A stretch of DNA of 30,811 nucleotides from Candidatus Magnetobacterium cryptolimnobacter (lineage in GTDB: Bacteria; Nitrospirota; Thermodesulfovibrionia; Thermodesulfovibrionales; Magnetobacteriaceae): positions 1 to 30,811 of the forward strand of contig JAGYWH010000099.1 in the NCBI GenBank assembly GCA_018606785.1, read 5' to 3'. The notes below the pieces were generated by a model. The model had not been told where the DNA came from, searched no databases, and was given only the letters and a program-made list of their open reading frames with translations. This document shows, piece by piece, positions 3,115 through 30,811 of the stretch (within the stretch, counting starts at the first letter, position 1; the number at the start of each line of letters is the position of its first letter). The position numbers and the translations under genes are program-made.

Positions 3115-3209
3115 AAACAAAGAAGGGGGCGGTTCCGCTTCTTTGTCGCTCCAGGACGCCTGGCCCCCCTCAGACCCCCACGCAAGGGGTCACGGACCCC
3201 TTGACCCCT
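3115..3209 (-). repeat. GC-rich bipartite palindromic intergenic repeat, long form (copy R1)
   Basis: Reverse complement reads GGGGTCAAGGGGTCCGTGACCCCTTGCG...GGGGGCCAGGCGTCCTGGAGCGACAAAGAAGCGGAACCGCCCCCTTCTT. It shares the long-form insert with the copy at 4968-5084. Confidence 0.85.
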
Positions 3210-3316: not shown

Positions 3317-3703
3317 TCATGGGATGTTTTTTTTAACGGTTACAATGTAGGGCGTAGATGTTGAGTCTGGAAATTTAATATATGGATATTGGCCAATCCT
3401 GTCGGCTTTTTCGAAATACTTATGTAACATATCTGAATTTTCTTTATTAAAAGTTGCAACTGCTATCTCAAACTCTTCACCAATGTTACGTGGAATACCA
3501 ACAGTTGCAATTGCTTGCCAGTTATTTCCTTTTACTGTCGCTATTGGTTGTGGCCACCATCGCCCTTTTAGGGTTTTTACATGCAAAAAAATCCATATAT
3601 CATCGTTATTATTAGCAGTATAATTGACAGTTCCTATCACTTTCAGCGCACACCCAACGGAGTTACCTTCTTCAGGTGATGTAATTTTAACGTATCCTCT
3701 CAA
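3317..3703 (-). CDS. Hypothetical protein (128 aa) in an AT-rich islet
   Basis: Long ORF in a roughly 35-40% GC segment (3.3-4.9 kb) contrasting with about 55% GC neighbours. No motif recognised. Confidence 0.5.
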   Translation of the reverse strand: MRGYVKITSPEEGNSVGCALKVIGTVNYTANNNDDIWIFLHVKTLKGRWWPQPIATVKGNNWQAIATVGIPRNIGEEFEIAVATFNKENSDMLHKYFEKADRIGQYPYIKFPDSTSTPYIVTVKKNIP

Positions 3704-3740
3704 AAAAGCAGGGTAATTTTTATTTCACGTTTAAAAGGCA

Positions 3741-3816
3741 TGGATTCCTGCTTTCGCAGGAATGACAATTACAGCCGTTTTCTAAGTGTGTCATTTCTTG
3801 CTTGACCAGGAATCCA
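3741..3816. repeat. MITE-like repeat, family 2 (copy M1): TIR TGGATTCC...GGAATCCA with nested hairpins
   Basis: tggattcctgctttcgcaggaatgaca...gtcatttcttgcttgaccaggaatcca. Closely similar to 21398-21476, with the same TIRs, ATTCCTGC/GCAGGAAT hairpin and internal GTCATT. Confidence 0.7.
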
Positions 3817-3834
3817 GTATACGTAAAAGTATAG

Positions 3835-4488
3835 TTACCATGAAATATAAAGAAGATACATTTTAACTTTATTGTAAGATTCTTCAAATAGCTCACTTGC
3901 TTTCTTTGGATTTGTTTCTATCTTGTCTTCAGCATCTTTCAACTTAGGTTGGTTGGGGAATCCTTCTCCGTGTACCTGAATAAGAGCAAGCTTATAGTAA
4001 AACGCTGAACTTGAATAGTGCTTATCGTTATAAGATTTCTCTGCCGCTTTAAGTAAACTTTGATTTAATTCAGCTGATCGTGGGTCTTGGAATCCTTCGC
4101 TCATACCATTCATATAACATGGTTGAATATACTTATTACGTATAAATTGCTTGTATGCATCATCATTTTTTATATATTTTTCCATAGCTCTTTCTGCAAT
4201 AGTTATAATATCCAAATCGAAACTGCCTGTTTTGCAATTTATTTCTTTATCCTTTAGTAAACTCAAGATACTGTTCACGGATACTATTGAAGATAAATCT
4301 GAATTTAACGTGTCTTGTTTTTTTTGATATTCATAAATTTCTATGGCTATTATAATGCTCAAGACGGTAAGCAAAACACCAAGTATGCCTATCATTATCT
4401 CGCTAAATGGGGCAAGATACAAAGCCTTTTTTCTTAACCGATTCCAAAAACCTATCTCTTCAGTTTCCATTGCCATAATGTCCTCCAA
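3835..4488 (-). CDS. Hypothetical single-pass membrane protein (217 aa) in the AT-rich islet
   Basis: One predicted TM helix (IMIGILGVLLTVLSIIIAIEIY) followed by a roughly 160-aa soluble domain. No recognised motifs. Low GC. Confidence 0.5.
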   Translation of the reverse strand: MEDIMAMETEEIGFWNRLRKKALYLAPFSEIMIGILGVLLTVLSIIIAIEIYEYQKKQDTLNSDLSSIVSVNSILSLLKDKEINCKTGSFDLDIITIAERAMEKYIKNDDAYKQFIRNKYIQPCYMNGMSEGFQDPRSAELNQSLLKAAEKSYNDKHYSSSAFYYKLALIQVHGEGFPNQPKLKDAEDKIETNPKKASELFEESYNKVKMYLLYISW

Positions 4489-4587: not shown

Positions 4588-4722
4588 CCAGTGAATTTTA
4601 CTTCACATGTTTTATGACACTGCCATATGAGCACCCTGACGTAAAACGTTGTAAAATGCGGTGTAAGATGTATTCTTAGAGGTCCGGGCAGGTATCTAAT
4701 GTGTGAAGTTTACTTCACTGGA
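4588..4722. promoter_or_regulatory. Pair of 16-bp palindromic operator-like sites (GTGAA-N6-TTCAC) about 110 bp apart, upstream of the 3835-4488 gene
   Basis: Site 1 at 4591-4606 is gtgaattttacttcac. Site 2 at 4703-4718 is gtgaagtttacttcac (7/8 dyad). Both sit within flanking ccagtgaa...ttcacatg context in inverted orientation. Confidence 0.3.
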
Positions 4723-4967: not shown

Positions 4968-5084
4968 GGGGTCAAGGGGACTTCTTCGTGGCCGGGGCGC
5001 CTCGCCCCTCCCCTTGCGGGGGGTTCTGAAGGGGGCCAGGTGCGACCTGGAGCGACAAGAAGCGGAGCCGCCCCTTTCTTTCTT
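4968..5084 (+). repeat. GC-rich bipartite palindromic intergenic repeat, long form (copy R2)
   Basis: GGGGTCAAGGGGAC[ttcttcgtggccggggcgcctcgcccctc]CCCTTGCGGGGGGTTCTGAAGGGGGCCAGGTGCGACCTGGAGCGACAAGAAGCGGAGCCGCCCCTTTCTTTCTT. Lies between the islet gene and the waaA 3' end. Confidence 0.9.
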
Positions 5085-5176: not shown

Positions 5177-6427
5177 TCACCCTGCCGCCAGCACCTGCGC
5201 TATCTCCTTTACGCACCGTGCCAGGGCGCCGGAGTTCCTTGTGTACAAGTCCCTGGCCACAGTCCCCATGCGTTGACGCAATGCGCTATCAGCAAGCAAC
5301 ATTGCCAGAGTGTCACGGAGGCTGTCGGCAGTCACGCTAATGGCGGCGCCCTGCTGGATGAATTCCCCTGTCATGGGGAAGTTGTCCATGTGCGGGCCGC
5401 AGACGATCGGCACCCCCCACGAGGCCGGTTCCAGGAGATTGTGTCCGCCCTTTGGCACAAAACTGCCACCCATGACGGCGACCTGCCCTGCCCCGTAGAC
5501 CGCAGCCAACTCCCCGACGCTATCTAGCAGTATCACGTCCGATTGAGGCAACTCACCAGTAAACATGCTTCGCCGCAAACAGCGCAGCCCAGCACGTTTA
5601 ATCAACCGCTCCGCCTCGTCAAAACGCTGCGGGTGTCGCGGGGCAAGTATCAACACCACCCCTGCAAACTGCTCCCTGAGACGCTTAAAGGCCGCCAGTA
5701 CGATTTCCTCCTCGCCCTCGTGCGTGGAGCCGGCCACAATCACCGGCCCTGACAACTGCCCTGCCCACGCAGGGACAACCGTCGGTGGTTCGATGTCGTA
5801 CTTGAGGTTGCCAACGACCTTTACACGACTCTCATCGGCGCCAATATCTATGATTCGTTGGGCGTAGACCTCGTTCTGCATTCCAAAGAGGGTCACCATA
5901 GACAGAACGTTTTTCATGAAGAACCTTATCTTTCGGTACCCATTGTACGAGTTGGAGGAGATGCGGCCATTGAGAACTACCACAGGCGTGTTGTGTGCGT
6001 GCATGGTATGAAAGACCCCCGGCCACAGCTCGGTCTCCATCGCAATAAAGATATCCGGCCTGAGACTCTTAACGGCCCCTCTGGCCGTGTACGGCAGATC
6101 AAAGGGGATGTAGATGAGCCTCACGCTGTCTTGAAGGCGCTGTTTGGCCACGGCCTGACCGGTATCGGTGACCGTTGAGACAACAACGTTTGGGGTGAGT
6201 TCATGCAATATCTTATTGACAAGCGGCACGGCGGATATGACCTCACCCACTGACACGGCGTGCAGCCAAACCACAGGGGCACCCTTGGACTTCCAGCCCT
6301 CGGATGGCTGATTGCCGCACCGCTGCGACAGCCACCGCTTTCTGAGCGATTCAGGTCGCTTGAGATACTCAAAGGGAAGCAACAGAGACAACGCCCCCGT
6401 ATACAAGGCATTATACAAAAACATCAT
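5177..6427 (-). CDS. waaA: 3-deoxy-D-manno-octulosonic acid (Kdo) transferase WaaA/KdtA
   Basis: 416 aa, collinear with E. coli WaaA (N-terminal membrane anchor, RKRW...GE motif, HAVSVGE, METELWP, GGHNxLEPA). Confidence 0.9.
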   Translation of the reverse strand: MMFLYNALYTGALSLLLPFEYLKRPESLRKRWLSQRCGNQPSEGWKSKGAPVVWLHAVSVGEVISAVPLVNKILHELTPNVVVSTVTDTGQAVAKQRLQDSVRLIYIPFDLPYTARGAVKSLRPDIFIAMETELWPGVFHTMHAHNTPVVVLNGRISSNSYNGYRKIRFFMKNVLSMVTLFGMQNEVYAQRIIDIGADESRVKVVGNLKYDIEPPTVVPAWAGQLSGPVIVAGSTHEGEEEIVLAAFKRLREQFAGVVLILAPRHPQRFDEAERLIKRAGLRCLRRSMFTGELPQSDVILLDSVGELAAVYGAGQVAVMGGSFVPKGGHNLLEPASWGVPIVCGPHMDNFPMTGEFIQQGAAISVTADSLRDTLAMLLADSALRQRMGTVARDLYTRNSGALARCVKEIAQVLAAG

Positions 6428-8850: not shown

Positions 8851-8953
8851 AGAAAAGAAGAAAAGAATGGGGACTCCGTCCCCTGACCCCCTGAAAGGTG
8901 GCGGCTCTGCCCCCCCTTTACCCCCCTGCAAGGGAGCCAGCCCCCTTGACCCC
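8851..8953 (-). repeat. GC-rich bipartite palindromic intergenic repeat (copy R3, variant)
   Basis: The minus strand reads GGGGTCAAGGGGGCTGGCTCCCTTGCAGGGGGGTAAAGGGGGGCAGAGCCGCCACCTTTCAGGGGGTCAGGGGACGGAGTCCCCATTCTTTTCTTC. Lies between the aminotransferase stop and the lpxB start. Confidence 0.85.
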
Positions 8954-8968
8954 ATCTTAGCTCACATC

Positions 8969-10060
8969 CTACAGACACCCCAGGATTACCTCACATACCC
9001 TGTGTATGTCTTCCTCCGGCATCCCGGGATACACGGGCAGAGACAACACCTCTTGGCACGCCCGTTCCGCTATGGGGAAGTCCCCCTGTTTGTAGCCGTA
9101 CTTTTCGGTCGCCCGCTGAAGGTGCATCGGGATGGGATAGTACACCACCGACGATATGTCCTCCTGCTGGAGCTTGGCCCTTATCTTATCCCTCTGTGGG
9201 CTGCGTATCGTGTACTGATGGTAGTTGCTGACGTATCCTTGGGGGACATGTGGGCAGCAAAGATGACCCGCAAGCAGCGAATTATAAATCTGTGCGTTCT
9301 GTCGTCTCAATTGGTTTTGTTGCTCGACCTTCTTTAACTTAATCAGCAGGATGCCGGCCTGTATTTCGTCAAGCCTGCTGTTAAAGCCCAGACACTCGTG
9401 TACGTAGTTGCCATGTGAACCGTGGTTTCTCAGCGCAAGTATTTGCTGATACATCTGGTGATCGTTTGTTGTAACTGCCCCGCCATCACCATAGCAGCCG
9501 AGGTTCTTGCTCGGATAAAAGCTAAAACACCCGGCATCTCCAAAACTCCCCGTCAACTGACCATTGATCGAAGAGCCAAAAGACTGCGCACAGTCCTCCA
9601 CAATGCCAAGATTGTACTGCCTGGCAAGGGACATTATCCCCTCCATGTCACAGGGCACTCCAAATATGTGCACCGGCAGGATAGCCTTTGTCTTTTTCGT
9701 TATCTTTTTCTCAATCTTATTAACATCGATGTTGAGCGTATTGTCATCAATGTCCACAAATACAGGTTTTGCACCGTTATAGATAATGCTCTCAATTGTG
9801 GCAAAAAACGTAAAAGGTGTCGTTATGACCTCATCGCCCTTGCCGACAGAGAGACATGCAAGGCTCAAAAACAACGCCCCCGTACCCGAACCCACCCCGG
9901 CGGCATAGCTCACACCATGGTAGGCCGACAACTGCCTCTCAAACTCCTCAACGTGCGGACCCAGGATGTAGCGACTGCTGCCCAGTATGTCAACAACGCT
10001 CTGTATCACCTCTTGTTCGATATCAAGAAATTCCTTGCGTAAATCCAACATTGGTATCAT
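8969..10060 (-). CDS. DegT/DnrJ/EryC1/StrS-family PLP-dependent sugar aminotransferase (GnnB-like, UDP-3-keto-GlcNAc transaminase candidate)
   Basis: 363 aa, DegT fold signature (YILGPHVEEFE...AAGVGSGTGAL...ITTPFTFFAT). Its start overlaps the stop of the upstream oxidoreductase (ATGA). Sits next to lpxB. Confidence 0.8.
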   Translation of the reverse strand: MIPMLDLRKEFLDIEQEVIQSVVDILGSSRYILGPHVEEFERQLSAYHGVSYAAGVGSGTGALFLSLACLSVGKGDEVITTPFTFFATIESIIYNGAKPVFVDIDDNTLNIDVNKIEKKITKKTKAILPVHIFGVPCDMEGIMSLARQYNLGIVEDCAQSFGSSINGQLTGSFGDAGCFSFYPSKNLGCYGDGGAVTTNDHQMYQQILALRNHGSHGNYVHECLGFNSRLDEIQAGILLIKLKKVEQQNQLRRQNAQIYNSLLAGHLCCPHVPQGYVSNYHQYTIRSPQRDKIRAKLQQEDISSVVYYPIPMHLQRATEKYGYKQGDFPIAERACQEVLSLPVYPGMPEEDIHRVCEVILGCL

Positions 10061-11043
10061 ATCATCAGACTCTCGTATGCCTTGTTCTCCTTTATAATAT
10101 TATCGATCAACAGTGTCAGTTCCAACGCATAACGCGCCTGCCCTGCAGTGACAGGAGGTTGTCTGTTGTCTCTGATGCAGTTGACAAAGTCCATCAACTC
10201 CCTCTGCAGCGGCTCAGACCTTTCAACGGCGATGTCCTCGGTCGCTATTGATGTGCCGTCCTTGAAGTACCTTGTAAGTGTTATATTGTGCAGGTCCACA
10301 GACAGGGAATTCTCTCTCTGAAAGACCTTCAGGGTACGTTTCTTGTGCGGATAAAGTCTGCCGGTTGTCAGCACGGCATTGAGGCCGCTGTCAAACTCGA
10401 TCCATGCCCGTGCCATGTCCGTCTTCTGCGTCAGGACACGTGCACCCACCGCCTTTACCGACCTTGCCTTTGAACGTGCTATGGACAGCACAATGTCTAT
10501 GTCGTGGATCATCAAATCCAAGGTCACGTCGATGTTAAACGCCCTTTCTATCAGCGGTGAACACCTCTCCGTTTCGATACACAACGCAACATCAATCAAC
10601 GACTGTGCTCTCAGAAACGCCGGGTTGTATCTCTCCACGTGTCCCACCTGCGTGATGAGTCCCCTGCTGTGCGCCTCTTGTATGATGGCGTCTGCTTCCT
10701 GTAGTGTAGAGGAGATAGGTTTTTCTATGAAGACGTGCTTTCCGGCCCTCAGACATTCCAACGCTATGGGACAGTGCGTGGCGGTTGGTGTGGCGATCAC
10801 TACGGCATCCACCAAGGGCAGTATCTGACGGTAATCCGTGTTTGTGCTCAGAGGTGAGTGGTCACCGGCATGGTTGCGCAGGGCGTCTTCCAGTGCCTGC
10901 CGGTTCGTATCGGAGATGGCACTGAGCACAACGCCATCCAGCCCGGCTAAAATACGGCAGTGGTGACGTCCAAAATACCCCACCCCGATCACCCCTGCAC
11001 GCAATGCAGATGTCCTACGCTCTGTGGACAATGCCGATTCCAA
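10057..11043 (-). CDS. Gfo/Idh/MocA-family NAD-dependent oxidoreductase (GnnA-like, UDP-GlcNAc 3-dehydrogenase candidate)
   Basis: 328 aa. Rossmann GVIGVGYFGRHH, then ...VVIATPTATH...EKP. The ORF-track start is a TTG; the real start may be an internal TTG/GTG just before the GxGxxG motif. Confidence 0.75.
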   Translation of the reverse strand: MESALSTERRTSALRAGVIGVGYFGRHHCRILAGLDGVVLSAISDTNRQALEDALRNHAGDHSPLSTNTDYRQILPLVDAVVIATPTATHCPIALECLRAGKHVFIEKPISSTLQEADAIIQEAHSRGLITQVGHVERYNPAFLRAQSLIDVALCIETERCSPLIERAFNIDVTLDLMIHDIDIVLSIARSKARSVKAVGARVLTQKTDMARAWIEFDSGLNAVLTTGRLYPHKKRTLKVFQRENSLSVDLHNITLTRYFKDGTSIATEDIAVERSEPLQRELMDFVNCIRDNRQPPVTAGQARYALELTLLIDNIIKENKAYESLMI

Positions 11044-11084: not shown

Positions 11085-12095
11085 CTACAGGGCATTGCTG
11101 ACCTTTTGTATCTCCTGTAGTTTTTTCATTGCACGGCCTGACTCTATGCACTCCTGCACCATGTCAACGGCAGCCTCGATGCCAATCCCCAGGTCTGAGA
11201 CCATCAGTCCGGCTGCGGCGTTGATCACAACGATATTGCGTTTGGTTCCCATGTATCCGCTTAGGACATCGAGAGTGTGGCGTGCGTTGTCGTCCTTGTC
11301 TGCGCCGGCTATGTCCTCGAGACGCCCGCGCTTAAAGCCAAAGTCCTCTGGGCAGAGGTACATGTTTTCTACCTTACCGTCGCGATATCTGGTGATCTTG
11401 GTGCCATCGGTGATGGTTATCTCATCGAGGCCGTCCTGTCCGTGACAGACCATGGCATCCTCCGCCCCCAGATTGCCCAGGACCATGGCCAACGGTTCGG
11501 TCAGCGCAGGCGAAAACACACCCAGTATTTGACGCCTTGCTCCGGCTGGATTGGTCAGTGGACCGAGGATGTTAAATATCGTCCGTACCCCGATCTCACG
11601 GCGTGGATTTACGGCATAACGCATGGCAGGATGAAACATGGGCGCAAACAAAAACCCAAATCCCGTCTCAAACAAACATCGCTCAACCTTGTCGGCAGGC
11701 AGGTCTATCTTTATGCCCAATGCCTCAAGGACATCGGCACTACCAGAGCGGCTGGACACCGAACGATTGCCGTGCTTGGCTATTGGCACCCCGCAGGCGG
11801 CAAGCACAATGGCCGCAGTTGTCGATATATTAAACGTGTGTGCCAGGTCCCCGCCCGTGCCACAGGTGTCAAGGACGTTTTCCGGGGCTTTGATACGCAC
11901 CGCCTTTAGTCTCATCACGGCGGCAGCGGCGGTTATCTCATCCACGCTTTCGCCCTTCAGACGCAACGCCGTCAAAAATGACCCGATCTGCGCATCCGTG
12001 GCCTTGCCCTCCATTATCTCCGTCATACACTCGGTCATTTCATCGGTGGAGAGGTTCAGCCCCTGCACCAGCATCCCTATGGCCTCACGAATCAC
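11085..12095 (-). CDS. trpD: Anthranilate phosphoribosyltransferase TrpD
   Basis: 336 aa, TrpD motifs (DTCGTGGD, HGNRSVSSRSGSADVLEALG). GGAGG Shine-Dalgarno 6 nt upstream of the ATG. Confidence 0.92.
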   Translation of the reverse strand: MIREAIGMLVQGLNLSTDEMTECMTEIMEGKATDAQIGSFLTALRLKGESVDEITAAAAVMRLKAVRIKAPENVLDTCGTGGDLAHTFNISTTAAIVLAACGVPIAKHGNRSVSSRSGSADVLEALGIKIDLPADKVERCLFETGFGFLFAPMFHPAMRYAVNPRREIGVRTIFNILGPLTNPAGARRQILGVFSPALTEPLAMVLGNLGAEDAMVCHGQDGLDEITITDGTKITRYRDGKVENMYLCPEDFGFKRGRLEDIAGADKDDNARHTLDVLSGYMGTKRNIVVINAAAGLMVSDLGIGIEAAVDMVQECIESGRAMKKLQEIQKVSNAL

Positions 12096-12140
12096 AGACT
12101 ACCTCCTCTATGCACCTCTGAAGACATTGCCGTCTCGTTA

Positions 12141-12190
12141 CCATCGCAAATCTCTGAATATATCATCTAAGTCTACCTCTAAACCAAAAA
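12141..12190 (-). pseudogene. Orphan 3'-terminal fragment of a Uma2-family gene (encodes ...[14 protein letters not shown]), 60 bp downstream of hepT
   Basis: About 47/52 nt identical to the 3' end of the intact Uma2 gene at 12959-13008 ([13 protein letters not shown]), with stop TGA changed to TGG. Seen directly in the sequence. Confidence 0.7.
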
Positions 12191-12252
12191 ATATTTATGA
12201 TAACACTTCGGATATTTTACCATATTTCTACTATGTTTTTGCGTAACATGAG

Positions 12253-12585
12253 TTATAAGTGTGGTTTTGAAAAAGATTCTTTAATCTTAGGTAACTGTAA
12301 CCTGATAACCTTCCAAACTATCTCATAATCAACACCAAAATAGAAATGGATAAGTTTATCCCTCATCCTTGCCATATCGCTCCAGGGGACATTCTCATGT
12401 TGATGTCTCATGTCTGACGGTATGTTTTTAGATGCCTCTCCAATTATTTCAAGTTGCCTTATTACTGCACTTGATGTTTTTATGTCAGATGCAAACTCAT
12501 CATAACTCATTTCGGCAATAAAGTCTTCAATATTTTGTATGCAATTAAGTATGTCTTTTATATAAAGGCTGGAGTCTCTATTCAT
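12253..12585 (-). CDS. hepT: HepT-like (DUF86) toxin of a type VII HepT/MNT toxin-antitoxin pair
   Basis: 110 aa with Rx4HxY motif (RDKLIHFY). ATG overlaps the stop of upstream mnt (ATGA). Confidence 0.85.
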   Translation of the reverse strand: MNRDSSLYIKDILNCIQNIEDFIAEMSYDEFASDIKTSSAVIRQLEIIGEASKNIPSDMRHQHENVPWSDMARMRDKLIHFYFGVDYEIVWKVIRLQLPKIKESFSKPHL

Positions 12586-12875
12586 ATTATCACCGTTTCA
12601 TTAAGTATACGTTCTCTTAACTCAGGCCGTACAGCGCTTTTCCTGACAAGATCAACCTTTTTCCTTAGAATTTTCTGAAGGTATCGTTCAATCTCTATAA
12701 ACTTTAGCAGATCAGGCACTTCGTCAAACTCAACAAGGATATCAATGTCACTTCTCCTTGTTTGTTCTGCCCTTGCATAAGAGCCAAATATTCCTATCTC
12801 TCTCACCTTGTATTTATTGACAAGTTCTTCCTTATGTAGTCTGATAGTGCTTTTTATCTCTTCTAAGTTTTTCAT
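12582..12875 (-). CDS. mnt: MNT nucleotidyltransferase antitoxin (minimal nucleotidyltransferase)
   Basis: GIFGSYARAEQTRRSDIDILVEF (GSxxRGx...DxDxLV). The ORF-track start at 12896 is a GTG inside duplicated Uma2-5' sequence. The most likely start is the ATG at 12873-12875 (MKNLEEIK...). Confidence 0.82.
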   Translation of the reverse strand: MKNLEEIKSTIRLHKEELVNKYKVREIGIFGSYARAEQTRRSDIDILVEFDEVPDLLKFIEIERYLQKILRKKVDLVRKSAVRPELRERILNETVII

Positions 12876-12958
12876 TACACTCTGCAAGCATAACACTTAT
12901 TTTGCCGTTACAACCCGGGGCAGTTCGAGGAAGTTCTTTAGATTGGTTAGTCCAATTA
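12865..12958 (-). repeat. Roughly 80-bp duplicate of the trpG-3'/Uma2-5' junction (13487-13567) lying at the 5' end of mnt
   Basis: Y (12865-12947) and X (13487-13567) align at about 80% identity, including ...ttacactctg[c/t]aagcata[a/g]cac... and gaggaagttcttta. A single G-to-T difference (taaggaaaaa to taatgaaaaa) creates the mnt ATG. Confidence 0.7.
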
Positions 12959-13522
12959 TCATCGCAAATCTCTGAATATATCATCCACGTCTACCTCTAA
13001 CCCCTTTAGCTCTCTTGAACTGACCACATTGCCACCCCGACAATGACAGACAAGCTCACCATCCTCGCTTAATGCCAACACCTCAACATATCTGCTGAAG
13101 GGATCGACTATCCAGTACTCCATGACCTTGTGACGCTGGTATAGTTGTCGCTTTTGATGCACGTCCCTGTACTGTGACGATGCCGAAAGAATCTCTACAA
13201 TCACATCAGGAGGACCAAAGACACCGCTGTATTGTACTCTGTGCAGGTTCAACCGCGATATAAACAATATATCAGGCTCAACAATGTCCTCATCACTGAG
13301 CACAACGTCTACGGGGGCATATAACACCATCCCCAGGGCATTGTCCTCAACAAAACGATTCAACCGGATAAACAATCTCTTTGATATAACCTGATGGTTG
13401 ATACTTGGAGCTGGAGACATCGACAGTATTGCTCCTATTAACTCATACCTGTGGTCATCGTCCAGGAGCAGGTAGTCGTCATAAGACAGTTTTTCCTTAC
13501 ACTCTGTAAGCATAGCACTCAT
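12959..13522 (-). CDS. Uma2-family endonuclease (DUF820, PD-(D/E)XK-like), embedded in the trp operon
   Basis: 187 aa with the Uma2 pattern ([18 protein letters not shown]...PDILFIS...EILSASS...K...Y...V.EYWIVDP). Its ATG overlaps the trpG stop (ATGA). Confidence 0.8.
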
Positions 13523-14103
13523 GTTGCCTTTACAACTGTGAACAGGTCGAGGAAGTTCTTTAATATCCGTTTGCCCTCGGTGGTTAAGATCGACTCCGGG
13601 TGAAACTGCACGCCCTCAACTATATGACTCTTATGGCGGATGGCCATTATTTCGCCATCATCCGTCCACGCAGAGTGGACAAAGTCAGCGGGGAGGGTAT
13701 CAGGGCGTATCACCAGGGAATGATACCTCGTGGCGATAAATGGATTGGACACTCCACTGAAGATGCCAACGCCATCGTGATGGACCATGGACGTCTTGCC
13801 GTGCATGAGTCTGTCGGCCCTGACGATAAGACCGCCATATGCCGCCCCGATGGCCTGATGCCCAAGACAGACGCCAAGTATCGGTACCCTGCCGGCAAAG
13901 TGTCTGATAACATCAATCGATATGCCGGCCTCATTGGGGGTGCATGGTCCGGGCGATATCACTATGTATTGCGGCTGCATCGCTTCAATCTCCGTCACGC
14001 TGACACTGTCGTTGCGACAGACCTTAATCTCCTGACCAAGCTCACCGAGATATTGTACCAGGTTATATGTAAAGGAATCATAGTTGTCGATCATCAAAAG
14101 CAT
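13519..14103 (-). CDS. trpG: Anthranilate synthase component II / glutamine amidotransferase TrpG (possibly bifunctional PabA)
   Basis: Class-I GATase triad context (GVCLGHQ...H.E). Start trimmed to the ATG at 14101-14103 (MLLMIDNYD), with GGAG 8 nt upstream and 5 bp after the trpE stop. The ORF-track start at 14172 overlaps trpE. Confidence 0.88.
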
Positions 14104-14108
14104 ATCCG

Positions 14109-15593
14109 TTACTCCAAACCGTTCTTGGCCATTATCACTGCCTTGAACATTCCCATTGCCTTGTTCACGCACTCATTGTGTTCCATCTCCGGCACCGAGT
14201 CGGCAACGATGCCGGCCCCCGCCTGCACGTATATCTTACCATCTATGGCCAATATCGTCCTGATGGTGATGCACATATCCATATCCCCGGTGAAGCTGAA
14301 GTACCCCACCGATCCGGCATACAGCCCCCGTGCCACCGGCTCAAGCTCGTCTATGATCTCCATTGCCCTGACCTTTGGGGCACCTGAGACCGTACCGGCA
14401 GGAAAACACGCCCGCAGGACATCAAAAGCGTCATGGTCATCCTTTAAGACGCCCTCGACGTTGGATACGATGTGCATGACATGACTGTAACGTTCAATGG
14501 TCATCAACTTAGTCACCTCCACGGAACCGGTACGGGCTACCCTGCCGACGTCGTTTCGGCCAAGATCAACGAGCATGATGTGTTCGGCTCGTTCCTTGGG
14601 GTCGGCCAGCAGTTCCTTCTCAAGGGCGATGTCTTCGGCGTCGGTTGAGCCTCGTTTTCTGGTCCCGGCAATGGGGCGGAGAATGATACGGTCTGACTCC
14701 AGTTTGACCAATATCTCCGGAGAAGAGCCGACAACCTTACAGCCGTCCAGATTCATATAGAACATGTAGGGGGAGGGGTTTATCACCCTGAGTTTCCGGT
14801 ATATCGTAAAGGGGTCAACAGCGGCGGAGGTCTCAAATCGCTGGGAGAGTACGATCTGGAAGGCATCTCCGGCCCTGATATACTCCTTGGCCCTGTCAAC
14901 AACATCCATGAAGTCTTCCGGTTTATTGAATGAAGACGTATAGTGAGTCGTGGAATTGTCTTTGCCTACGTCAAGGCTGTCGTCTTTACGTGGTTTTTTC
15001 AACAGACTGATCATGGACTCTATCTTTGCCACTGCATCGGCGTAGGCCTCTTCGGCAGTCGTGTTGTCATCTATGAAGGCGTTGGCAACAACCTTGATGA
15101 CATGCTTGAGGTGATCAAAGATCAGCAGCGTCTCCATTTTCATCATGTACATATCCGGCAGTCCGAGCGAAGGTTTGTCGGTGGGCGTGACCTTCTCAAA
15201 GAATCTAACGCTTTCGTAACCGATATATCCCACCAGTCCACCAAAGAAGCGTGGTAGACCCGGAACCTCAACGACCTTGTATGGAGCCATCTCTTGTTTG
15301 AGGACATTCAGCGGGTCATCGACCCTCATATGCACCGGAGGCTGTTGGTGTCGGGTGATTTCCATATCGTTGCCCCAGCCCTTGATGACCTTCATGGGCA
15401 CCCCAGCTATGAAAGAATACCGTGCCCATTTCTCACCGCCCTCAACGCTCTCAAACAGGAACGAGTCCCGTCCGTTTATCTTCATGTACGCAGATACCGG
15501 CGTCTCCATATCGGCCAGTATCTCCTTGTACACCGGTATCAGGTTACCTCTGCCTGAGAGTTCCTTAAATTGTTCCAGTTCCGGATAATACAT
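14109..15593 (-). CDS. trpE: Anthranilate synthase component I TrpE
   Basis: Chorismate-binding enzyme (PIAGTRKRG...[25 protein letters not shown]...[11 protein letters not shown]). The ORF-track start at 15620 is a TTG; the first ATG (MYYPELEQF) at 15591-15593 is more likely. Confidence 0.9.
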
Positions 15594-15739
15594 TGTGACA
15601 AACACTCTCTCTTTTCTCAAGAATATGTTTCATATAAATTATACTGTGTATATCATAACAGTTTGGTCAAAGAAAGTTCCAATAGTACTCAGAGTTATGC
15701 TCTCTTGCTTATGACCGTCATGCTCCATGGATAGCTCAA

Positions 15740-16453
15740 TCATCCATTTTGAAACAACGCAGGAGTCAGTGTCTCCAGAAATGAAATCGTATAAGTCCAT
15801 GCCGCCTTTGCCGCATAATGTTGCCACTTATCATCTTTTTTGGAGTCTGCCTTGTCACTGACGCCTTTAATCATAATAAAACCCGGCTTTGAAAAATTTT
15901 GACTGATAGCCTTGCAAACACCGGCAGATTCCATTTCGATGGCCACAAGCTTGTTCCAGACGCCGAGGAACTCGGTTACCTTTTTCTCATCAGCCACGAC
16001 CTTGTTACCGGATAATACGACTCCAAATAACACTTTAGGGACAAAGTTGTCAGATATTAAAGTCAACTTCCACTCGCTGCTTCTGTATCCCCTCAGACGG
16101 TTCAAAAGAAATGCATCTACGTCATATCCCTTCCAGTGTGCAGATGTACCATCAGTGGTTATCTTCCCCAGCTCGTAGTCCACCACTTGATCGGAAACTA
16201 CAACATCCCCGATGTTGACATCTTTTCCTGCCCCTCCGGCTATTCCGATGAGCAGTATCTTTTTGGGTTGCCACTGGTATAGTATATCCGCTGTTACCAA
16301 TGCTGCATCCACATGCCCCATTCCAATGGCACAGGTAGCTATTATGTTGAGACCGTTTTTGGTTCGGTATTGGTAATATGTGCGAATTGAATTAAAGATG
16401 CTTTCTACGGGTTGCCATCCCTCCGTTTTTTCCAGGATAGCGTTAAGCTCCAA
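15740..16453 (-). CDS. PNP/UDP-phosphorylase-family nucleosidase (MTA/SAH-nucleosidase/futalosine-hydrolase-like), 5' end uncertain
   Basis: IIATCAIGMG...LLIGIAGGAG...AIEMESAG motifs. The conserved N-terminal strand (RVDVAIITALPLELNAILEK) is in frame upstream of the first canonical start (a TTG at 16451-16453) with no ATG/GTG/TTG, so there may be a frameshift or non-canonical start. About 40% GC. Confidence 0.7.
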   Translation of the reverse strand: MELNAILEKTEGWQPVESIFNSIRTYYQYRTKNGLNIIATCAIGMGHVDAALVTADILYQWQPKKILLIGIAGGAGKDVNIGDVVVSDQVVDYELGKITTDGTSAHWKGYDVDAFLLNRLRGYRSSEWKLTLISDNFVPKVLFGVVLSGNKVVADEKKVTEFLGVWNKLVAIEMESAGVCKAISQNFSKPGFIMIKGVSDKADSKKDDKWQHYAAKAAWTYTISFLETLTPALFQNG

Positions 16454-16467
16454 CGGAAGTGCCGTGA

Positions 16468-16848
16468 TTATCGCAACATCGACTCTTTGAGGCGCAGGTT
16501 GCTCCTGTTTGATATTTTTTTCTTTTCGGCTTGGCTTTTTCTATCCTGCCCCTCATAAACTGTCGCTGTTGCATGTTTCCCAGCAGCCAAGGCTTCAGCT
16601 TGTATACTTCCTCCCTGTACAAAGATTCCACTGTTTACTATGACAGTGGATTTATCTTTATTGTTTGAAGCATTAACATTACCGGAACTATCAGTATCTG
16701 TCACGTCCGGAGACAGAATCCTTTCTATGTAGCTAATGCGCTCTTTATACACCATGATCTTGTCGTGGTCCGGATTAATCTTTATCTCTTCGCTACGTAA
16801 TAAATCCCTGTAAGAATCAAGTCGATTTATATAATCCCTTTTTTCCAT
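16468..16848 (-). CDS. Small hypothetical protein (126 aa), paralog of the 16975-17199 product; shared motif IVN(N/S)GIFVQGG(N/S)IQA.A.A.G
   Basis: AGGGAGG Shine-Dalgarno 10 nt upstream of the ATG. The conserved 25-aa C-terminal block is shared with the neighbouring 74-aa ORF. AT-rich. Confidence 0.55.
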   Translation of the reverse strand: MEKRDYINRLDSYRDLLRSEEIKINPDHDKIMVYKERISYIERILSPDVTDTDSSGNVNASNNKDKSTVIVNSGIFVQGGSIQAEALAAGKHATATVYEGQDRKSQAEKKKISNRSNLRLKESMLR

Positions 16849-16974: not shown

Positions 16975-17199
16975 TTATTTCTCCTTTTTATTAGTTTCTG
17001 CTTTAGCTTTAGCTTTAGCTCCAACTGCAATGGCATTAGCCTGTATATTTCCTCCTTGCACGAATATTCCGTTGTTTACTATAGCTGTGGCTTTGTCTTT
17101 AAAATCCGAAGTATCAATATTATGTTTATCCAAGAAATCTGCTATAGAATCAATAATTTCTCTTTCCAATACTTTTACATACATTTCCTTATCCAGCAT
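16975..17199 (-). CDS. Small hypothetical protein (74 aa), paralog of the 16468-16848 product
   Basis: ...KDKATAIVNNGIFVQGGNIQANAIAVGAKAKAKAE, matching ...KDKSTVIVNSGIFVQGGSIQAEALAAGKHATA in its neighbour. Confidence 0.5.
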   Translation of the reverse strand: MLDKEMYVKVLEREIIDSIADFLDKHNIDTSDFKDKATAIVNNGIFVQGGNIQANAIAVGAKAKAKAETNKKEK

Positions 17200-17328: not shown

Positions 17329-17961
17329 CTAAGAAAAGCATGGTAAGATGGGGTCAAGGGGGCTGGCCCCCTTGCAGGGGAGGTCTGAGGAGGGGGCGGA
17401 GCCGCCCTCCTTCTTTCTTTTACCATGCAATATAAAGAGGATACGAAAATACTCTAAAATTATCAGCAGCATAGAAACAAATATAGAAAAGAATGCGAGA
17501 GCATGCTTGTTGTCATAGTTGTCAGCGAATTTACTCATCTTTACTATTAATGATATATCTATGCCTGGCTCAGGAGGATCGGCAAGATGCTTTTCTCTGT
17601 CACATTTTAGTATCTCATTTCTTAAATTGCTATCCGATAACACACTAGCGGCAATATATCTTGTTGCTTCACTTTTCCTGAAATCCATCATTGCTCCTCC
17701 ACTTACACTTATTGAACGAAAATTATCATACCTATCTCTACTGTTAAGACTCCAATTAACCAGCTCATAACCTTTATCATCCGCAAATCTTCCTGTAATA
17801 ATTAACACTAAATCATAAAAAACCCATAAACCAAAACCACCTCCAGTAAAAAGCATCAGCATCCCCGTCCATGCTTTCCTCACATAAAAGCGATGTACAC
17901 CAGCCCATCCAAAAACAAAACACAGCACCAAAGCTACCATCCTGTTTTTCTCAGAAACCAT
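17329..17961 (-). CDS. TM2-domain (PF05154) membrane protein with a second C-terminal TM helix; the last ~28 codons are encoded by repeat copy R4
   Basis: The N-terminus ALVLCFVFGWAGVHRFYVRKAWTGMLMLFTGGGFGLWVFYDLVLIITG matches the TM2 consensus. The ORF runs through the GC-rich repeat (KEGGSAPSSDLPCKGASPLDPIL) with no earlier stop. Confidence 0.7.
   Translation of the reverse strand: MVSEKNRMVALVLCFVFGWAGVHRFYVRKAWTGMLMLFTGGGFGLWVFYDLVLIITGRFADDKGYELVNWSLNSRDRYDNFRSISVSGGAMMDFRKSEATRYIAASVLSDSNLRNEILKCDREKHLADPPEPGIDISLIVKMSKFADNYDNKHALAFFSIFVSMLLIILEYFRILFILHGKRKKEGGSAPSSDLPCKGASPLDPILPCFS
17349..17420 (+). repeat. GC-rich bipartite palindromic repeat (copy R4, short canonical form)
   Basis: GGGGTCAAGGGGGCTGGCCCCCTTGCAGGGGAGGTCTGAGGAGGGGGCGGAGCCGCCCTCCTTCTTTCTTTT. 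Confidence 0.9.
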
Positions 17962-19633: not shown

Positions 19634-19867
19634 GTCAGTCTCCTTAATGGTTCAAGTCAATCTCTGTAATAGGTAAGACCTCTCTCAGTCTCATGTCATC
19701 AACTGATTTAATTTTACGCCCCCGTGCAAAGTTTTTGCAAATACCCGCTCACGGTCTACGTCTGACTGTAGGTAGCCATCAATGGTCCGTCGTGTGATAT
19801 GGCAGAAGTCGGAGGCGACCCCATTTCTTTTCTTGTTTTATCGCGCGTTTCGATCGCGTGCAATACA

Positions 19868-19935
19868 AAGAACAAGGAGGGCGGCTCCGCCCCCTCCTTG
19901 ACCTCCCCCGCAAGGGAACCAGTCCCCTTGACCCC
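19868..19935 (-). repeat. GC-rich bipartite palindromic repeat (copy R6) in the hisF/pseI divergent intergenic region
   Basis: The minus strand reads GGGGTCAAGGGGACTGGTTCCCTTGCGGGGGAGGTCAAGGAGGGGGCGGAGCCGCCCTCCTTGTTCTTT. Confidence 0.9.
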
Positions 19936-20054
19936 ATAAAAATACCACATATCTTGTATTTAATCCAATCGAAATCTGCTATATTATATCTTTTGTTTAC
20001 AGACTAAAATATGTTACCATGTAAGGAGTAAAAGGACATAACGATAGCGATTAC

Positions 20055-25656: not shown

Positions 25657-25912
25657 AACAATACTCCTTAATAAAGGTTGTCTAATGTTACACCAATAAG
25701 AGGTTTATAATCCTTGTCTGTCCTAATAAACTACTGCTATATAATATCACGATTTTCTTAATTGTGCAAACACGGCGTTTGGTTCCCTGAATTTGACCAT
25801 TGACAACATCATGGGCTTTATGATAGATTGAAACGTAAGATTTTATCAAAACTGACAGAGGACAACAGGGTAAGTAGTCGAGCATAAACATGTATAACAT
25901 CACCAGCCTTAT

Positions 25913-25994
25913 GGGGTCAAGTGGACTGGTCCCCTTAGCAGGGGGGATCTGAAGGGGGGGCAGCGCCGCCCCATTCTTTTTCTTTATTCTTCTT
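25913..25994 (+). repeat. GC-rich bipartite palindromic repeat (copy R8) immediately upstream of the 25998 start codon
   Basis: GGGGTCAAGTGGACTGGTCCCCTTAGCAGGGGGGATCTGAAGGGGGGGCAGCGCCGCCCCATTCTTTTTCTTTATTCTTC, then tgaaATG. Confidence 0.9.
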
Positions 25995-25997
25995 GAA

Positions 25998-27530
25998 ATG
26001 AAGGCCATATATCCAGACAAGGGCGGGTTCCTGGCTGCCGTGGCGGATGGCTCTATCCCTGCCCTTTACAGGGAACTGACCTACAGACGGCCATCACTGT
26101 ACTACTCTGTCCTGAGACAGAAGAACTCCTTTATCCTTGAGAGCGTGCGCGGGTCAGTCAACACAGCCAGGTACTCCTTCATCGGCTTTGAACCTTACAT
26201 GACGGTCAAGGCAAATGGCTCTTTTGTTGAGGTACAAAAGGACGGCAAGAGGAGTCTGTCGTCAAAGGACCCGTTGACCAAACTCAGGGAGCTTATCGGC
26301 GGCTACAAGCAACGCATCTCAGGCAACCTGCCACCGTTTCAGGGTGGTGCAGTGGGGCTGTTGAGCTACGACCTGGTGCGCAGCATCGAGGACATCCCCA
26401 ACACGGCAATAAACGATCTGGACATCCCCCTGTTGCACTTCTTCATGATAGACAGGCTCATAGCGGTAGACCACGTCAGGGAGGTGGCGTGGTTGATTGT
26501 CTGCCCCGGCATCAGGCAAGACGGCCCCGTCTTTAATGCAGCCAAGATCAACTGGAGCCGCCAGTATGATGAAACGGCAGACTTTATCAATAACATGGCG
26601 TCCTTTTTGGAGGACAAGCTATCCGGTGTTGCCCCCACTGACATCATAAAACCTGCCCCTGAGCGCCATAGAACAATTGAGATCGTTCACGAAACAACAA
26701 AAGAACGCTACATGGGTATGGTCGGAAGGACACTGCAATACATAGGAGCCGGAGACATCTTTCAGGCCAATCTTTCGCAGAGGCTCTCGGCACGCATCGG
26801 GGATACGGACCCCTGGCAGATATACACCCTGCTGTCAACGGTGAATCCGTCGCCGTTTGCGTGTTTCCTGGATTTTGGTGACTATCAGATCGTCAGTTCT
26901 TCGCCGGAGAGGCTGGTCAGGGTCATGGCTAAACCCGACGGCTCATTGGTTGTCGATACGCGGCCCATTGCCGGGACGAGACCACGTGGCAAGGACGTTG
27001 GTGAGGATGATGCGTTACGCAGCGATCTCCTGCTCAACGAAAAGGAGTGTGCCGAACACATCATGCTCATTGATCTGGAGCGCAACGACCTGGGAAGGGT
27101 ATGCAGGTATGGCACGGTCGGCGTGGATGAGTTGATGATCACGGAGGACTACTCGCACGTCATCCACATCGTATCCAACGTCAGGGGCGTCCTCAACAGT
27201 GGTAAGGATTGCATAGACGTGATCAGGGCCGTCTTTCCCGGGGGGACTATCACGGGTGTACCCAAGGTGCGCTGTATGCAGATAATTGACGAGCTCGAAC
27301 CGGTTGCACGCGGCCCATACACGGGATCGGTGGGATATATCGGTTTTGCTCAAAATATGGATATCAATATAATCATACGCAGCTTTGTTGTCAAGGACGG
27401 TTACGCTTACGTTCAGGCAGGGGCCGGGATCGTAGCAGACTCAGACCCCGAAAGAGAGTACTACGAAACACTTAGCAAGGCAGAAGCCTTAATAAAAACA
27501 TTAAAGATTCTCTATGGAGGTAGCCTATGA
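25998..27530 (+). CDS. Chorismate-utilising enzyme of the TrpE/PabB family (second copy in window; aminodeoxychorismate synthase component I or a related ADC/isochorismate-type synthase)
   Basis: 510 aa. PIAGTRPRG, ...EKECAEHIMLIDLERNDLGRV...GVPKVRCMQIIDELE, collinear with TrpE at 14109-15593 but clearly paralogous. No glutaminase subunit adjacent. Confidence 0.8.
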   Translation: MKAIYPDKGGFLAAVADGSIPALYRELTYRRPSLYYSVLRQKNSFILESVRGSVNTARYSFIGFEPYMTVKANGSFVEVQKDGKRSLSSKDPLTKLRELIGGYKQRISGNLPPFQGGAVGLLSYDLVRSIEDIPNTAINDLDIPLLHFFMIDRLIAVDHVREVAWLIVCPGIRQDGPVFNAAKINWSRQYDETADFINNMASFLEDKLSGVAPTDIIKPAPERHRTIEIVHETTKERYMGMVGRTLQYIGAGDIFQANLSQRLSARIGDTDPWQIYTLLSTVNPSPFACFLDFGDYQIVSSSPERLVRVMAKPDGSLVVDTRPIAGTRPRGKDVGEDDALRSDLLLNEKECAEHIMLIDLERNDLGRVCRYGTVGVDELMITEDYSHVIHIVSNVRGVLNSGKDCIDVIRAVFPGGTITGVPKVRCMQIIDELEPVARGPYTGSVGYIGFAQNMDINIIIRSFVVKDGYAYVQAGAGIVADSDPEREYYETLSKAEALIKTLKILYGGSL

Positions 27531-27901: not shown

Positions 27902-27984
27902 CGAGTCTGGCTCATTTTGTTAGCCGTAAAAAATTTATGCACTCGGGCAATTGGGTGCATAAACTTTTGGTGGGTAAGATAAAC

Positions 27985-28083
27985 GGGGTCAAGGGGACTG
28001 GTCCCCTTGCAGGGGAGGTCAAGGAGGGGGCGGAGCCGCCCTTCTTGTAGGGGGTAGGGGGCGAAGCCCCCATTCTTTCTTTG
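27985..28083 (+). repeat. GC-rich bipartite palindromic repeat (copy R9) with a duplicated B-module; probable terminator of the upstream two-gene unit
   Basis: GGGGTCAAGGGGACTGGTCCCCTTGCAGGGGAGGTCAAGGAGGGGGCGGAGCCGCCCTTCTTGTAGGGGGTAGGGGGCGAAGCCCCCATTCTTTCTTTG. Confidence 0.9.
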
Positions 28084-29341: not shown

Positions 29342-29393
29342 GCAATGATAACATACTTCGATTGGATTAAATACAAGACATAGGCATTTTTAT

Positions 29394-29462
29394 GGGGTCA
29401 AGGGGACTGGTCCCCTTGCGGGGGGTTCTGAAGGGGGGCGGAGCCGCCCCTTTCTTTTTTTT
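29394..29462 (+). repeat. GC-rich bipartite palindromic repeat (copy R10); its B-module plus T-run forms a textbook intrinsic terminator for the SBP gene
   Basis: GGGGTCAAGGGGACTGGTCCCCTTGCGGGGGGTTCTGAAGGGGGGCGGAGCCGCCCCTTTCTTTTTTTT. Confidence 0.9.
29438..29462 (+). terminator. Rho-independent terminator (GGGGGGCGGAGCCGCCCC hairpin + T8) downstream of the SBP gene
   Basis: Perfect GC stem GGGGCGG/CCGCCCC with a 2-nt loop, followed by TTTCTTTTTTTT. Confidence 0.55.
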
Positions 29463-29469
29463 ATGTTGA

Positions 29470-30666: not shown

Positions 30667-30710
30667 AGGAAAAAACGGATAACTATGATCGTAATAGTTC
30701 ACCCCCCTAA

Positions 30711-30782
30711 GAAGAAGGAAAGAAAGGGGCGGCTCCGCCCCCCTTCAGAACCCCCTGCAAGGGGGCCAGCCCCCTTGACCCC
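30711..30782 (-). repeat. GC-rich bipartite palindromic repeat (copy R11) downstream of the radical SAM gene
   Basis: The minus strand reads GGGGTCAAGGGGGCTGGCCCCCTTGCAGGGGGTTCTGAAGGGGGGCGGAGCCGCCCCTTTCTTTCCTTCTTC. Confidence 0.9.
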
Positions 30783-30811
30783 TTCTTACCTTGTTGACAT
30801 TGGGTTGATTA

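Follow-up and report, generated by a model that had tools for sequence, protein, structure and literature searches.

Type VII toxin-antitoxin (TA) modules such as SO_3165/SO_3166 of Shewanella oneidensis consist of two small genes that overlap, mnt lying 5' of hepT, and the HepT RNase is neutralized through AMPylation (polyadenylylation) catalyzed by MntA (PMC7641770). Genes of the Uma2 family (PF05685, also DUF820), whose products are putative endonucleases of the PD-(D/E)XK-like kind, have been described as interlopers in conserved gene clusters, namely, between mamK and man2 in some Nitrospirae magnetosome clusters (PMC8353452), within a cyanobactin cluster (PMC6162287), and within a CRISPR-Cas locus (PMC5647855). 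We analyzed a stretch of 30,811 nucleotides (nt) from Candidatus Magnetobacterium cryptolimnobacter (contig JAGYWH010000099.1 of assembly GCA_018606785.1; here called the window), in which an intact Uma2 gene and an mnt-hepT pair follow one another between the tryptophan biosynthesis genes trpG and trpD. The TA pair is bordered on both sides by short copies of the ends of the Uma2 unit. The arrangement is best read as the result of an in situ tandem duplication of Uma2 followed by replacement of the interior of the downstream copy by the TA pair, i.e., as an evolutionary scar rather than a device, a reading to which we assign a probability of about 0.7.

The locus resembles several described systems without matching any of them completely. 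With type VII HepT/MntA modules it shares the overlapping small genes with mnt upstream, Pfam domain matches above the gathering thresholds, the Rx4HxY motif of HepT, and the GSX10DXD motif of MNT. It differs from them in scoring below the curated equivalog models, in an atypical HepT tail, and in that the pair lacks an upstream region of its own, starts directly at its ATG, and lies inside a biosynthetic operon. Integron cassettes that carry TA modules are likewise small and promoter-less and rely on upstream transcription, but no attC-like inverted repeat, integrase, or cassette array was found here, and the pair is therefore not a member of that class. A study of the type VI secretion system is reported to invoke homology-facilitated illegitimate recombination for sequential effector displacement, which yields arrays of retained immunity genes (PMC5361080); a retained gene remnant and a duplicated piece of an upstream conserved gene are shared with the present locus. 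The joining of foreign DNA at a microhomology of 8 to 11 nt and the absence of a recombinase or terminal repeats are shared with illegitimate recombination facilitated by microhomology or homology (PMC3240628, PMC5361080). The present case differs from those routes in that the donor and the 3' junction are not reconstructible and in that the choice between duplication with replacement and one-sided homology is uncertain.

Direct repeats flanking the mnt-hepT pair

On the minus strand of the window, to which coordinates refer unless stated otherwise, the list of open reading frames (ORFs) together with a repeat search gave the order trpE, trpG, intact Uma2, A', mnt, hepT, B', trpD, in which A' and B' are second copies of two segments, A and B, of the intact Uma2 unit. 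The features of the region, with the evidence for each, are as follows.

15620-14109, minus strand: trpE, anthranilate synthase component I, first gene of the unit (Pfam Chorismate_bind, 3e-95; Anth_synt_I_N, 1.8e-31)
14172-13519, minus strand: trpG, glutamine amidotransferase (Pfam GATase, 5.3e-61)
13562-13488, minus strand: repeat A, native trpG 3' end (~40 nt) plus Uma2 5' end (~35 nt) (repeat search; aligns with the junctions of the Uma2-bearing relatives L006 to L008)
13522-12959, minus strand: intact Uma2 (PD-(D/E)XK-like) gene (Pfam Uma2, 3.7e-28, 98.6 bits)
13003-12956, minus strand: repeat B, 3' end of intact Uma2 (repeat search)
12958-12941, minus strand: 18 nt past the Uma2 stop, putative Uma2-trpD spacer remnant at the end of duplication unit 1 (alignments; 622-nt period)
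12940-12866, minus strand: repeat A', degenerate 75-nt copy of the trpG-3'/Uma2-5' junction (identity to A)
12875-12582, minus strand: mnt, MntA-like nucleotidyltransferase antitoxin, 97 amino acids (aa) (Pfam NTP_transf_2, 3.7e-17)
12585-12253, minus strand: hepT, HEPN RNase toxin, 110 aa, 4-nt overlap with mnt (Pfam HepT-like, 1.8e-28)
12252-12186, minus strand: AT-rich 3' untranslated tail of the cassette, 67 nt (low GC; no match elsewhere)
12185-12138, minus strand: repeat B', isolated 3' end of Uma2 at its native site, 48 nt (identity to B)
12137-12096, minus strand: ancestral Uma2-trpD spacer with the GGAGG ribosome-binding site of trpD (alignment with the Ca. M. casense spacer)
12095-11085, minus strand: trpD, anthranilate phosphoribosyltransferase (Pfam Glycos_transf_3, 5.5e-89)

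The preliminary description of this DNA had proposed that the TA pair sits in place of the body of a second Uma2 gene whose flanking duplications are preserved. When the region was aligned with itself, significant matches to the intact Uma2 unit were obtained at both ends. A' was identical to A at 63 of 75 positions (84%; self-BLAST E = 1.5e-16) and B' to B at 44 of 48 (92%; E = 9e-13), and a tblastn comparison of Uma2 residues 174 to 187 with B' gave 93% identity. The core pattern of each repeat occurred exactly twice in the window, compared to 0.00 to 0.02 occurrences expected from shuffled sequences. The TGA stop of B reads TGG in B', as had been reported, the first Uma2 ATG is replaced by ATA in A', and the last 8 to 11 nt of A' overlap the start of mnt.

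The positions of the repeats fit a tandem unit whose second copy has exchanged its interior. The start-to-start spacings were 622 nt for A/A' and 818 nt for B/B', and the difference of 196 nt is what is left when the 484 nt that separate A from B (Uma2 interior) are subtracted from the 680 nt that separate A' from B'. A' begins 42 nt before the former trpG stop and holds 40 nt of the trpG 3' end, which argues that this locus itself, or an orthologous one, was the source of the second unit. The spacer between B' and trpD could be aligned at nearly every base with its Ca. M. casense counterpart between Uma2 and trpD (GGCAATGTCTTCAGAGGTGCAT.AGGAGGTAGTCTGTG), and B' is therefore the Uma2 3' end in its native position; since A continues trpG without a break, both copies stand in tandem register. 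Both unit ends thus occur twice, in the same order and orientation, and the distal copy abuts the original downstream flank, while copy 2 is without its interior, which has been replaced. The 18 nt that follow the intact Uma2 stop are weakly similar (TAA..GAC..CAAT) to the spacer after B', and the junction between units 1 and 2 would, from the 622-nt period, lie at 12941/12940. Together, these results indicated that the sequences on either side of the TA pair genuinely derive from a second Uma2 unit of ~622 nt that has lost its interior.

The same arrangement was found at ~99.9% identity in GCA_002753685.1, GCA_015233985.1, GCA_040325905.1, and the Logan assembly of SRR30797584. These four assemblies are independent and represent the same population (Ca. 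Magnetobacterium sp. LHC-1), and their proteins are named as belonging to Ca. Magnetobacterium sp. LHC-1 or Ca. M. casensis. Since four assemblies share the arrangement, it is not an assembly artifact. The LHC-1 paper contains no text on tryptophan, toxins, or Uma2. When metagenome DNA was scanned with the conserved Uma2 3'-end pattern GARGTAGACNTNGATGATATATT, four matches were returned; none of them encoded any of the seven locus proteins (TrpE to GFO), and the matches were dismissed as chance. Elsewhere in the window, at 17444/17445, the sister assemblies carry ~1.2 kb of extra DNA (loci of 20,333 and 20,564 nt, GCA_002753685.1 and/or GCA_015233985.1), which includes a segment 86% similar to window positions 3688-3859. 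This is a strain-level indel amid small paralogous ORFs (16468-16848 and 16975-17199) that have the motif IVN(N/S)GIFVQGG(N/S)IQA in common.

Uma2 in the trp operons of related genomes

A genome scan with TrpD yielded 44 orthologous or related loci, of which 36 had trpG and trpD on one strand. In most Nitrospirota, trpG and trpD are neighbors; the gap between them was at most 40 nt in 23 of the 36 loci and 41 to 160 nt in 8, and in 3 it held a single intact Uma2 gene and nothing else. The Uma2-bearing relatives were Ca. M. casense MYR-1, nDJH13bin1, and MYbinv3, with TrpD identities of 94%, 91%, and 81%, and the Uma2 orthologues between trpG and trpD were 91% (L006), 76% (L007), and 70% (L008) identical to that of the window; a further metagenome-assembled genome (MAG), GCA_015233455.1, showed trpE-trpG-Uma2 up to the end of its contig, which breaks off within Uma2. 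The duplication and the TA pair occurred in the window lineage and in none of the other related loci examined. Thus, the trp operons of relatives display the two ancestral states that the preliminary description had led one to expect, contiguous trpG-trpD and trpG-Uma2-trpD, and the existence of relatives with a single Uma2 or with contiguous genes indicates that the duplication and the TA pair are derived in the window lineage. A search for Uma2 homologues returned only three clusters with at least 70% identity, all from the same clade, the next best being at most 53% identical, and it revealed no additional locus states.

Among the clade orthologues, the ratio of nonsynonymous to synonymous substitution rates (dN/dS) of Uma2 was 0.14 to 0.22. 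The dS values of Uma2 (0.28, 0.56, and 1.15) broadly tracked those of trpD (0.32, 0.72, and 1.67) and of trpG. Low dN/dS values in a gene whose dS follows that of the trp genes indicate that Uma2 is an old, vertically inherited, and selected resident of the operon in this clade. Its GC content is 44 to 48%. Family membership is clear from the profile match (98.6 bits versus a gathering threshold of 27, covering profile positions 2 to 171 of 172), and the related structures in the PDB, 6OKH (2.5e-31), 9Y1L, and 1WDJ, are all deposited as uncharacterized; no function could be found for any member of the Uma2 family. Uma2 is thus an interloper in a conserved cluster here as in the published cases, from which it differs in its stable inheritance within the trp operon across at least four sequenced lineages and in the purifying selection that it experiences.

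Uma2 had been described as translationally coupled to trpG through an ATGA overlap. The overlap does exist in the window, but it offers only one possible reading, as its ATG is absent from two orthologues. The conserved start is the ATG at 13513, 9 nt downstream, which gives a protein of 184 aa and is probably the true start of Uma2. For trpG itself, the start annotated in the sister assemblies yields 194 aa. The trpD gene begins with GTG and, as previously noted, has its own GGAGG, located 8 nt upstream of that codon.

Downstream of trpD on the same strand (window positions 8969-11043), a GFO_IDH_MocA oxidoreductase and a DegT-type aminotransferase gene are followed by LpxB, and trpC, trpF, trpB, and trpA are not what comes after trpD in the window. 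A GFO-type gene also lies 3' of trpD in the Uma2-bearing relatives L006 to L008. A second chorismate-binding-type gene of 510 aa occurs on the plus strand at 25998-27530; it shows ~67% nucleotide identity over 400 nt to the 3' part of trpE (14197-14597) and probably represents a paralogue, for instance pabB or menF.

The mnt-hepT cassette, its 5' junction, and its expression

The GC content of the cassette was 33 to 37%, compared to 52 to 58% in the trp genes. MNT had 982 homologues, the best of which outside the population was 72% identical, with hundreds at 60 to 70% and named ones from several phyla. The low GC content and the distribution of the nearest outside homologues point to a foreign origin of the cassette. 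The two genes are adjacent and co-oriented, with mnt first and a 4-nt overlap, as in the HEPN/MNT arrangement. The GSX10DXD motif of MNT is intact (G31 S32 ... D43 I D45) and invariant among 22 sequences, and the Rx4HxY motif of HepT (R75-DKLI-H80-F-Y82) is invariant among 6 homologues. Both proteins scored above the Pfam gathering thresholds (NTP_transf_2, 62.9 bits versus 21; HepT-like, 99.1 versus 23.5), but the NCBIfam equivalogs MntA_antitoxin and HepT_toxin were not reached (51.6 and 42.2 bits versus 60). By these sequence comparisons, the pair is assigned to the broad HEPN/MNT family, outside the curated equivalog. A comparison of the HepT sequence with the PDB gave no match at 1e-3.

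HepT residues 104 to 110 (12275-12253) read SFSKPHL where the family consensus ends IKPxIxxILxELE, and neither a frameshift nor an alternative frame that would restore the consensus C-terminus was found; the 3' recombination junction may have clipped the end of hepT. The origin of the 3' tail of the cassette (12186-12285) was sought in the window and in every locus fetched, and no match was obtained. No inverted repeats flanking the cassette were detected in the repeat search, and no integrase or transposase domain was called within ~10 kb, so that the pair shows neither the flanking repeats nor the nearby recombinase of an integron cassette or transposable element. Among the relatives of the cassette, the gene 3' of hepT in L066 (1303-1392) starts with MALPSWWQATTPHKDIREGKL, and a ~90-nt fragment (a 29-aa ORF) resembling the N terminus of that gene product follows hepT in the unrelated contexts of L050 to L057 (L050:4640-4729). 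The fragment is also present, with looser DNA similarity, in L058 (~4640-4700). The mnt-hepT cassette may, on this pattern, have dragged along a piece of a former downstream neighbor when it moved.

It had been suggested that the mnt ATG arose by a single G-to-T change within the duplicated Uma2 5' sequence. This does not hold. Of 21 aligned MNT homologues, 17 are 97 aa long and begin at the same position with MK/MQ/MR-x-[LIV]-x-E-[IM]; homologous MNT proteins natively start with MK[S/T/N]LEEI, one of them (P0033) with MKNLEEIK, and the DNA encoding the P0033 start in L068 reads ATGAAAAATTTAGAAGAAATAAAAA, compared to ATGAAAAACTTAGAAGAGATAAAAA in the window. These native starts, at both the protein and the DNA level, indicate that the ATG and the codons that follow it belong to the cassette and speak against their creation by a point mutation. 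An additional GTG is present upstream, at 12896. Within A and A', the stretch AA(G/T)GAAAAACT constitutes an 8-nt microhomology, or 10 of 11 nt with the flanking AA, that joins Uma2 codons 9 to 12 with mnt codons 1 to 3, and it is the likely site of the 5' crossover. With the native ATG located at the crossover, the cassette would have brought no 5' region of its own. The closest mnt-hepT relative, in L066 (72%), and that in L068 (70%) are likewise without 5' sequence of their own; the start codon of mnt forms an ATGA overlap with the stop codon of the preceding gene in each of them (L066:666-669 and L068:195-198), and in L068 this preceding gene looks like a DNA methyltransferase. These contexts suggest that this mnt-hepT subfamily is often operon-embedded.

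The only terminator-like match in the trpG-trpD interval was weak and lay inside hepT, and over 11900-15900 there were 2 such matches, compared to 2.5 expected from shuffles. Sigma-70 promoter-like matches numbered 13 versus 6.9 ± 2.9 expected, and among them a weak site (9/12; 12984-12955) in the 3' end of Uma2, 5' of A', was given no weight. The hepT-trpD spacer showed no unusual fold (z = -0.03), and Rfam returned no match either in the operon region (E <= 1) or in the whole window (gathering thresholds). Since there is no predicted terminator and the cassette has no promoter of its own, mnt-hepT is most likely transcribed together with the trp genes in a trpE-trpG-Uma2-mnt-hepT-trpD message, with trpD most likely translated from its own GGAGG.

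The window also contains a dispersed GC-rich repeat of ~65 to 80 nt, in both orientations and with 80 to 95% identity, whose consensus is ATGGGGTCAAGGGGACTGGTCCCCTTGCAGGGGGG..AAGGGGGGGCGGAGCCGCCCC.TTT. Copies are located at window positions 3116-3189, 5010-5084, 8890-8965, 17335-17425, 19860-19942, 25905-25990, 27970-28052, 29388-29468, and 30710-30797. The repeat comprises two hairpin-forming palindromes, with a T-rich tail in several copies, and has the look of a repetitive extragenic palindromic element or a terminator; it scored below the gathering threshold of every Rfam family. None of the copies lies between trpE and trpD, and one is located just past the DegT-like gene downstream of trpD.

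Origin and meaning of the arrangement

The proposal that a tandem Uma2 duplication had its downstream copy hollowed out and occupied by a TA module fits both the remnants and the ancestral states seen in relatives. Comparison of the trp operons indicates that an ancestor of the Ca. Magnetobacterium clade gained Uma2 between trpG and trpD and that it has been passed on vertically ever since, under purifying selection. In the window lineage, a unit of ~622 nt, whose ends lay 42 nt upstream of the trpG stop and ~18 nt downstream of the Uma2 stop, would then have been duplicated in tandem. Judging from the junctions, illegitimate recombination would next have removed ~484 nt of the downstream Uma2 interior and replaced it with ~680 to 690 nt of foreign AT-rich DNA that begins essentially at the mnt start codon and comprises mnt, hepT, and the 67-nt tail, with the 5' crossover presumably at the GAAAAACT microhomology between Uma2 and mnt codons. 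By analogy with other type VII modules, the HepT RNase would be held inactive via AMPylation by MntA, and the pair would persist as a selfish passenger, since selection would act against its loss through B/B' recombination (26 identical nt).

Several observations weigh against this history. A and A' are ~83% identical, a divergence that matches the one between A and Ca. M. casense (84%), and polarization of the differences by eye with outgroups placed about equal numbers of changes on the intact copy and on the remnant, a result that would not be predicted by recent in situ duplication and neutral decay of the remnant alone. The intermediates, Uma2-Uma2 without the TA pair or a single Uma2 replaced by it (Uma2::TA), were present in no database searched. 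The 18-nt spacer remnant is only weakly similar, no microhomology is identifiable at the 3' junction, and the C-terminal tail of HepT departs from the consensus, leaving the integrity of the toxin uncertain. As to divergence, B and B' (91.5%) resemble each other more than either resembles Ca. M. casense, and the C-terminal tail of trpG that lies within A evolves fast in every species, so that the A/A' divergence does not discriminate between the scenarios. In a different order of events, in our estimation an unlikely one, the TA pair would first have replaced the interior of a single-copy Uma2, in the window lineage or in a close relative, and homology-facilitated illegitimate recombination would subsequently have brought the two alleles together; homology in trpG or trpD would have anchored one end, and the other would be an illegitimate joint at spacer +18 / trpG -42. 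Either an intact Uma2 would have been re-acquired upstream of the disrupted one, or a Uma2::TA allele would have been imported downstream. Such joining would account for an A/A' divergence (83%) equal to that between species (84%) and for derived changes on both copies; because Uma2 is under purifying selection, restoration of an intact copy could be favored, and the mechanism is documented (PMC3240628, PMC5361080). However, this account requires two lineages and two events, one lineage being enough otherwise; a single-copy Uma2::TA allele did not turn up, and the dS values relative to Ca. M. casense (trpG, 0.21; Uma2, 0.28; trpD, 0.32) form no clear mosaic. The fast-evolving trpG tail in A, moreover, explains the A/A' divergence by itself.

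The preliminary description had also offered, as an alternative, the targeting of Uma2 genes by a TA cassette. Genomes of the same kinds are rich in both Uma2 and MNT/HepT genes, and the window supplies a single instance of the association; a cassette, or machinery that moves it, that specifically seeks out Uma2 and leaves fragments as a recurrent signature is nevertheless very improbable. Five contexts of related mnt-hepT pairs were sampled (61 to 72% MNT identity), namely, next to rlmH (L050 to L057), hsdM (L058), and gyrA (L067) and in two methyltransferase-linked operons (L066, L068), and none of the five had an annotated Uma2 nearby; tblastn, applied to L050 to L060 in the first two contexts only, found no Uma2 fragments there. 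The cassette has neither terminal inverted repeats nor a recombinase, and a literature search found no link between Uma2 and HepT, their co-occurrences being incidental. In addition, an unrelated pair occupies the same trpG-trpD junction, with no Uma2 present, in a distant Nitrospirota MAG (L016:5296-5998, CALGPO010000063.1). It consists of TumE (PF20126, 2.2e-16; two frames joined by hand across an apparent frameshift at ~5495-5510) and HVO_A0114 (PF25212, 1.2e-26), and this TA-like pair is flanked by an 8-nt direct repeat, ATTTCATT, at 5296 and 5975. The recurring theme is the insertion of small selfish modules at the trpG-trpD junction, and the targeting of Uma2 is not supported. As for chance similarity or an assembly chimera as the source of the repeats, nothing but the generic risk attached to MAGs speaks for it, and its probability is negligible in view of the E values (1.5e-16 and 9e-13), zero matches expected in shuffles, the identical arrangement in four independent assemblies, and the alignment of the remnants with orthologous junctions of other species. 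Duplication in place followed by TA replacement remains our preferred account.

The locus is built of known parts by known processes, i.e., an abundant HEPN/MNT family, a Uma2 interloper, and illegitimate recombination, and it is not a new type of system. Rather, it provides a legible worked example of a TA module entering a chromosome without mobile-element machinery, at which the ancestral state, the target that was duplicated, the junction with its microhomology, and the remnants can still be read, and it corrects the tempting misreading of a start codon made by mutation. Three modules have now been seen at the Nitrospirota trpG-trpD junction: Uma2, MNT/HepT, and TumE/HVO_A0114. A speculative extension, which we consider doubtful and to which we attach a low probability, is that this boundary is a recurrent landing site for promoter-less selfish modules living off operon transcription, of which Uma2, because it is conserved under purifying selection, would perhaps have been domesticated for an operon-linked function. 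If this were true, the dosage of HepT/MntA in the window lineage would follow expression of the trp operon and hence tryptophan status. Together with the TumE/HVO_A0114 insertion and the operon-embedded relatives, the mnt-hepT pair described here suggests that small TA modules commonly ride promoter-less in host operons, which bears on how the expression of TA modules is to be interpreted.

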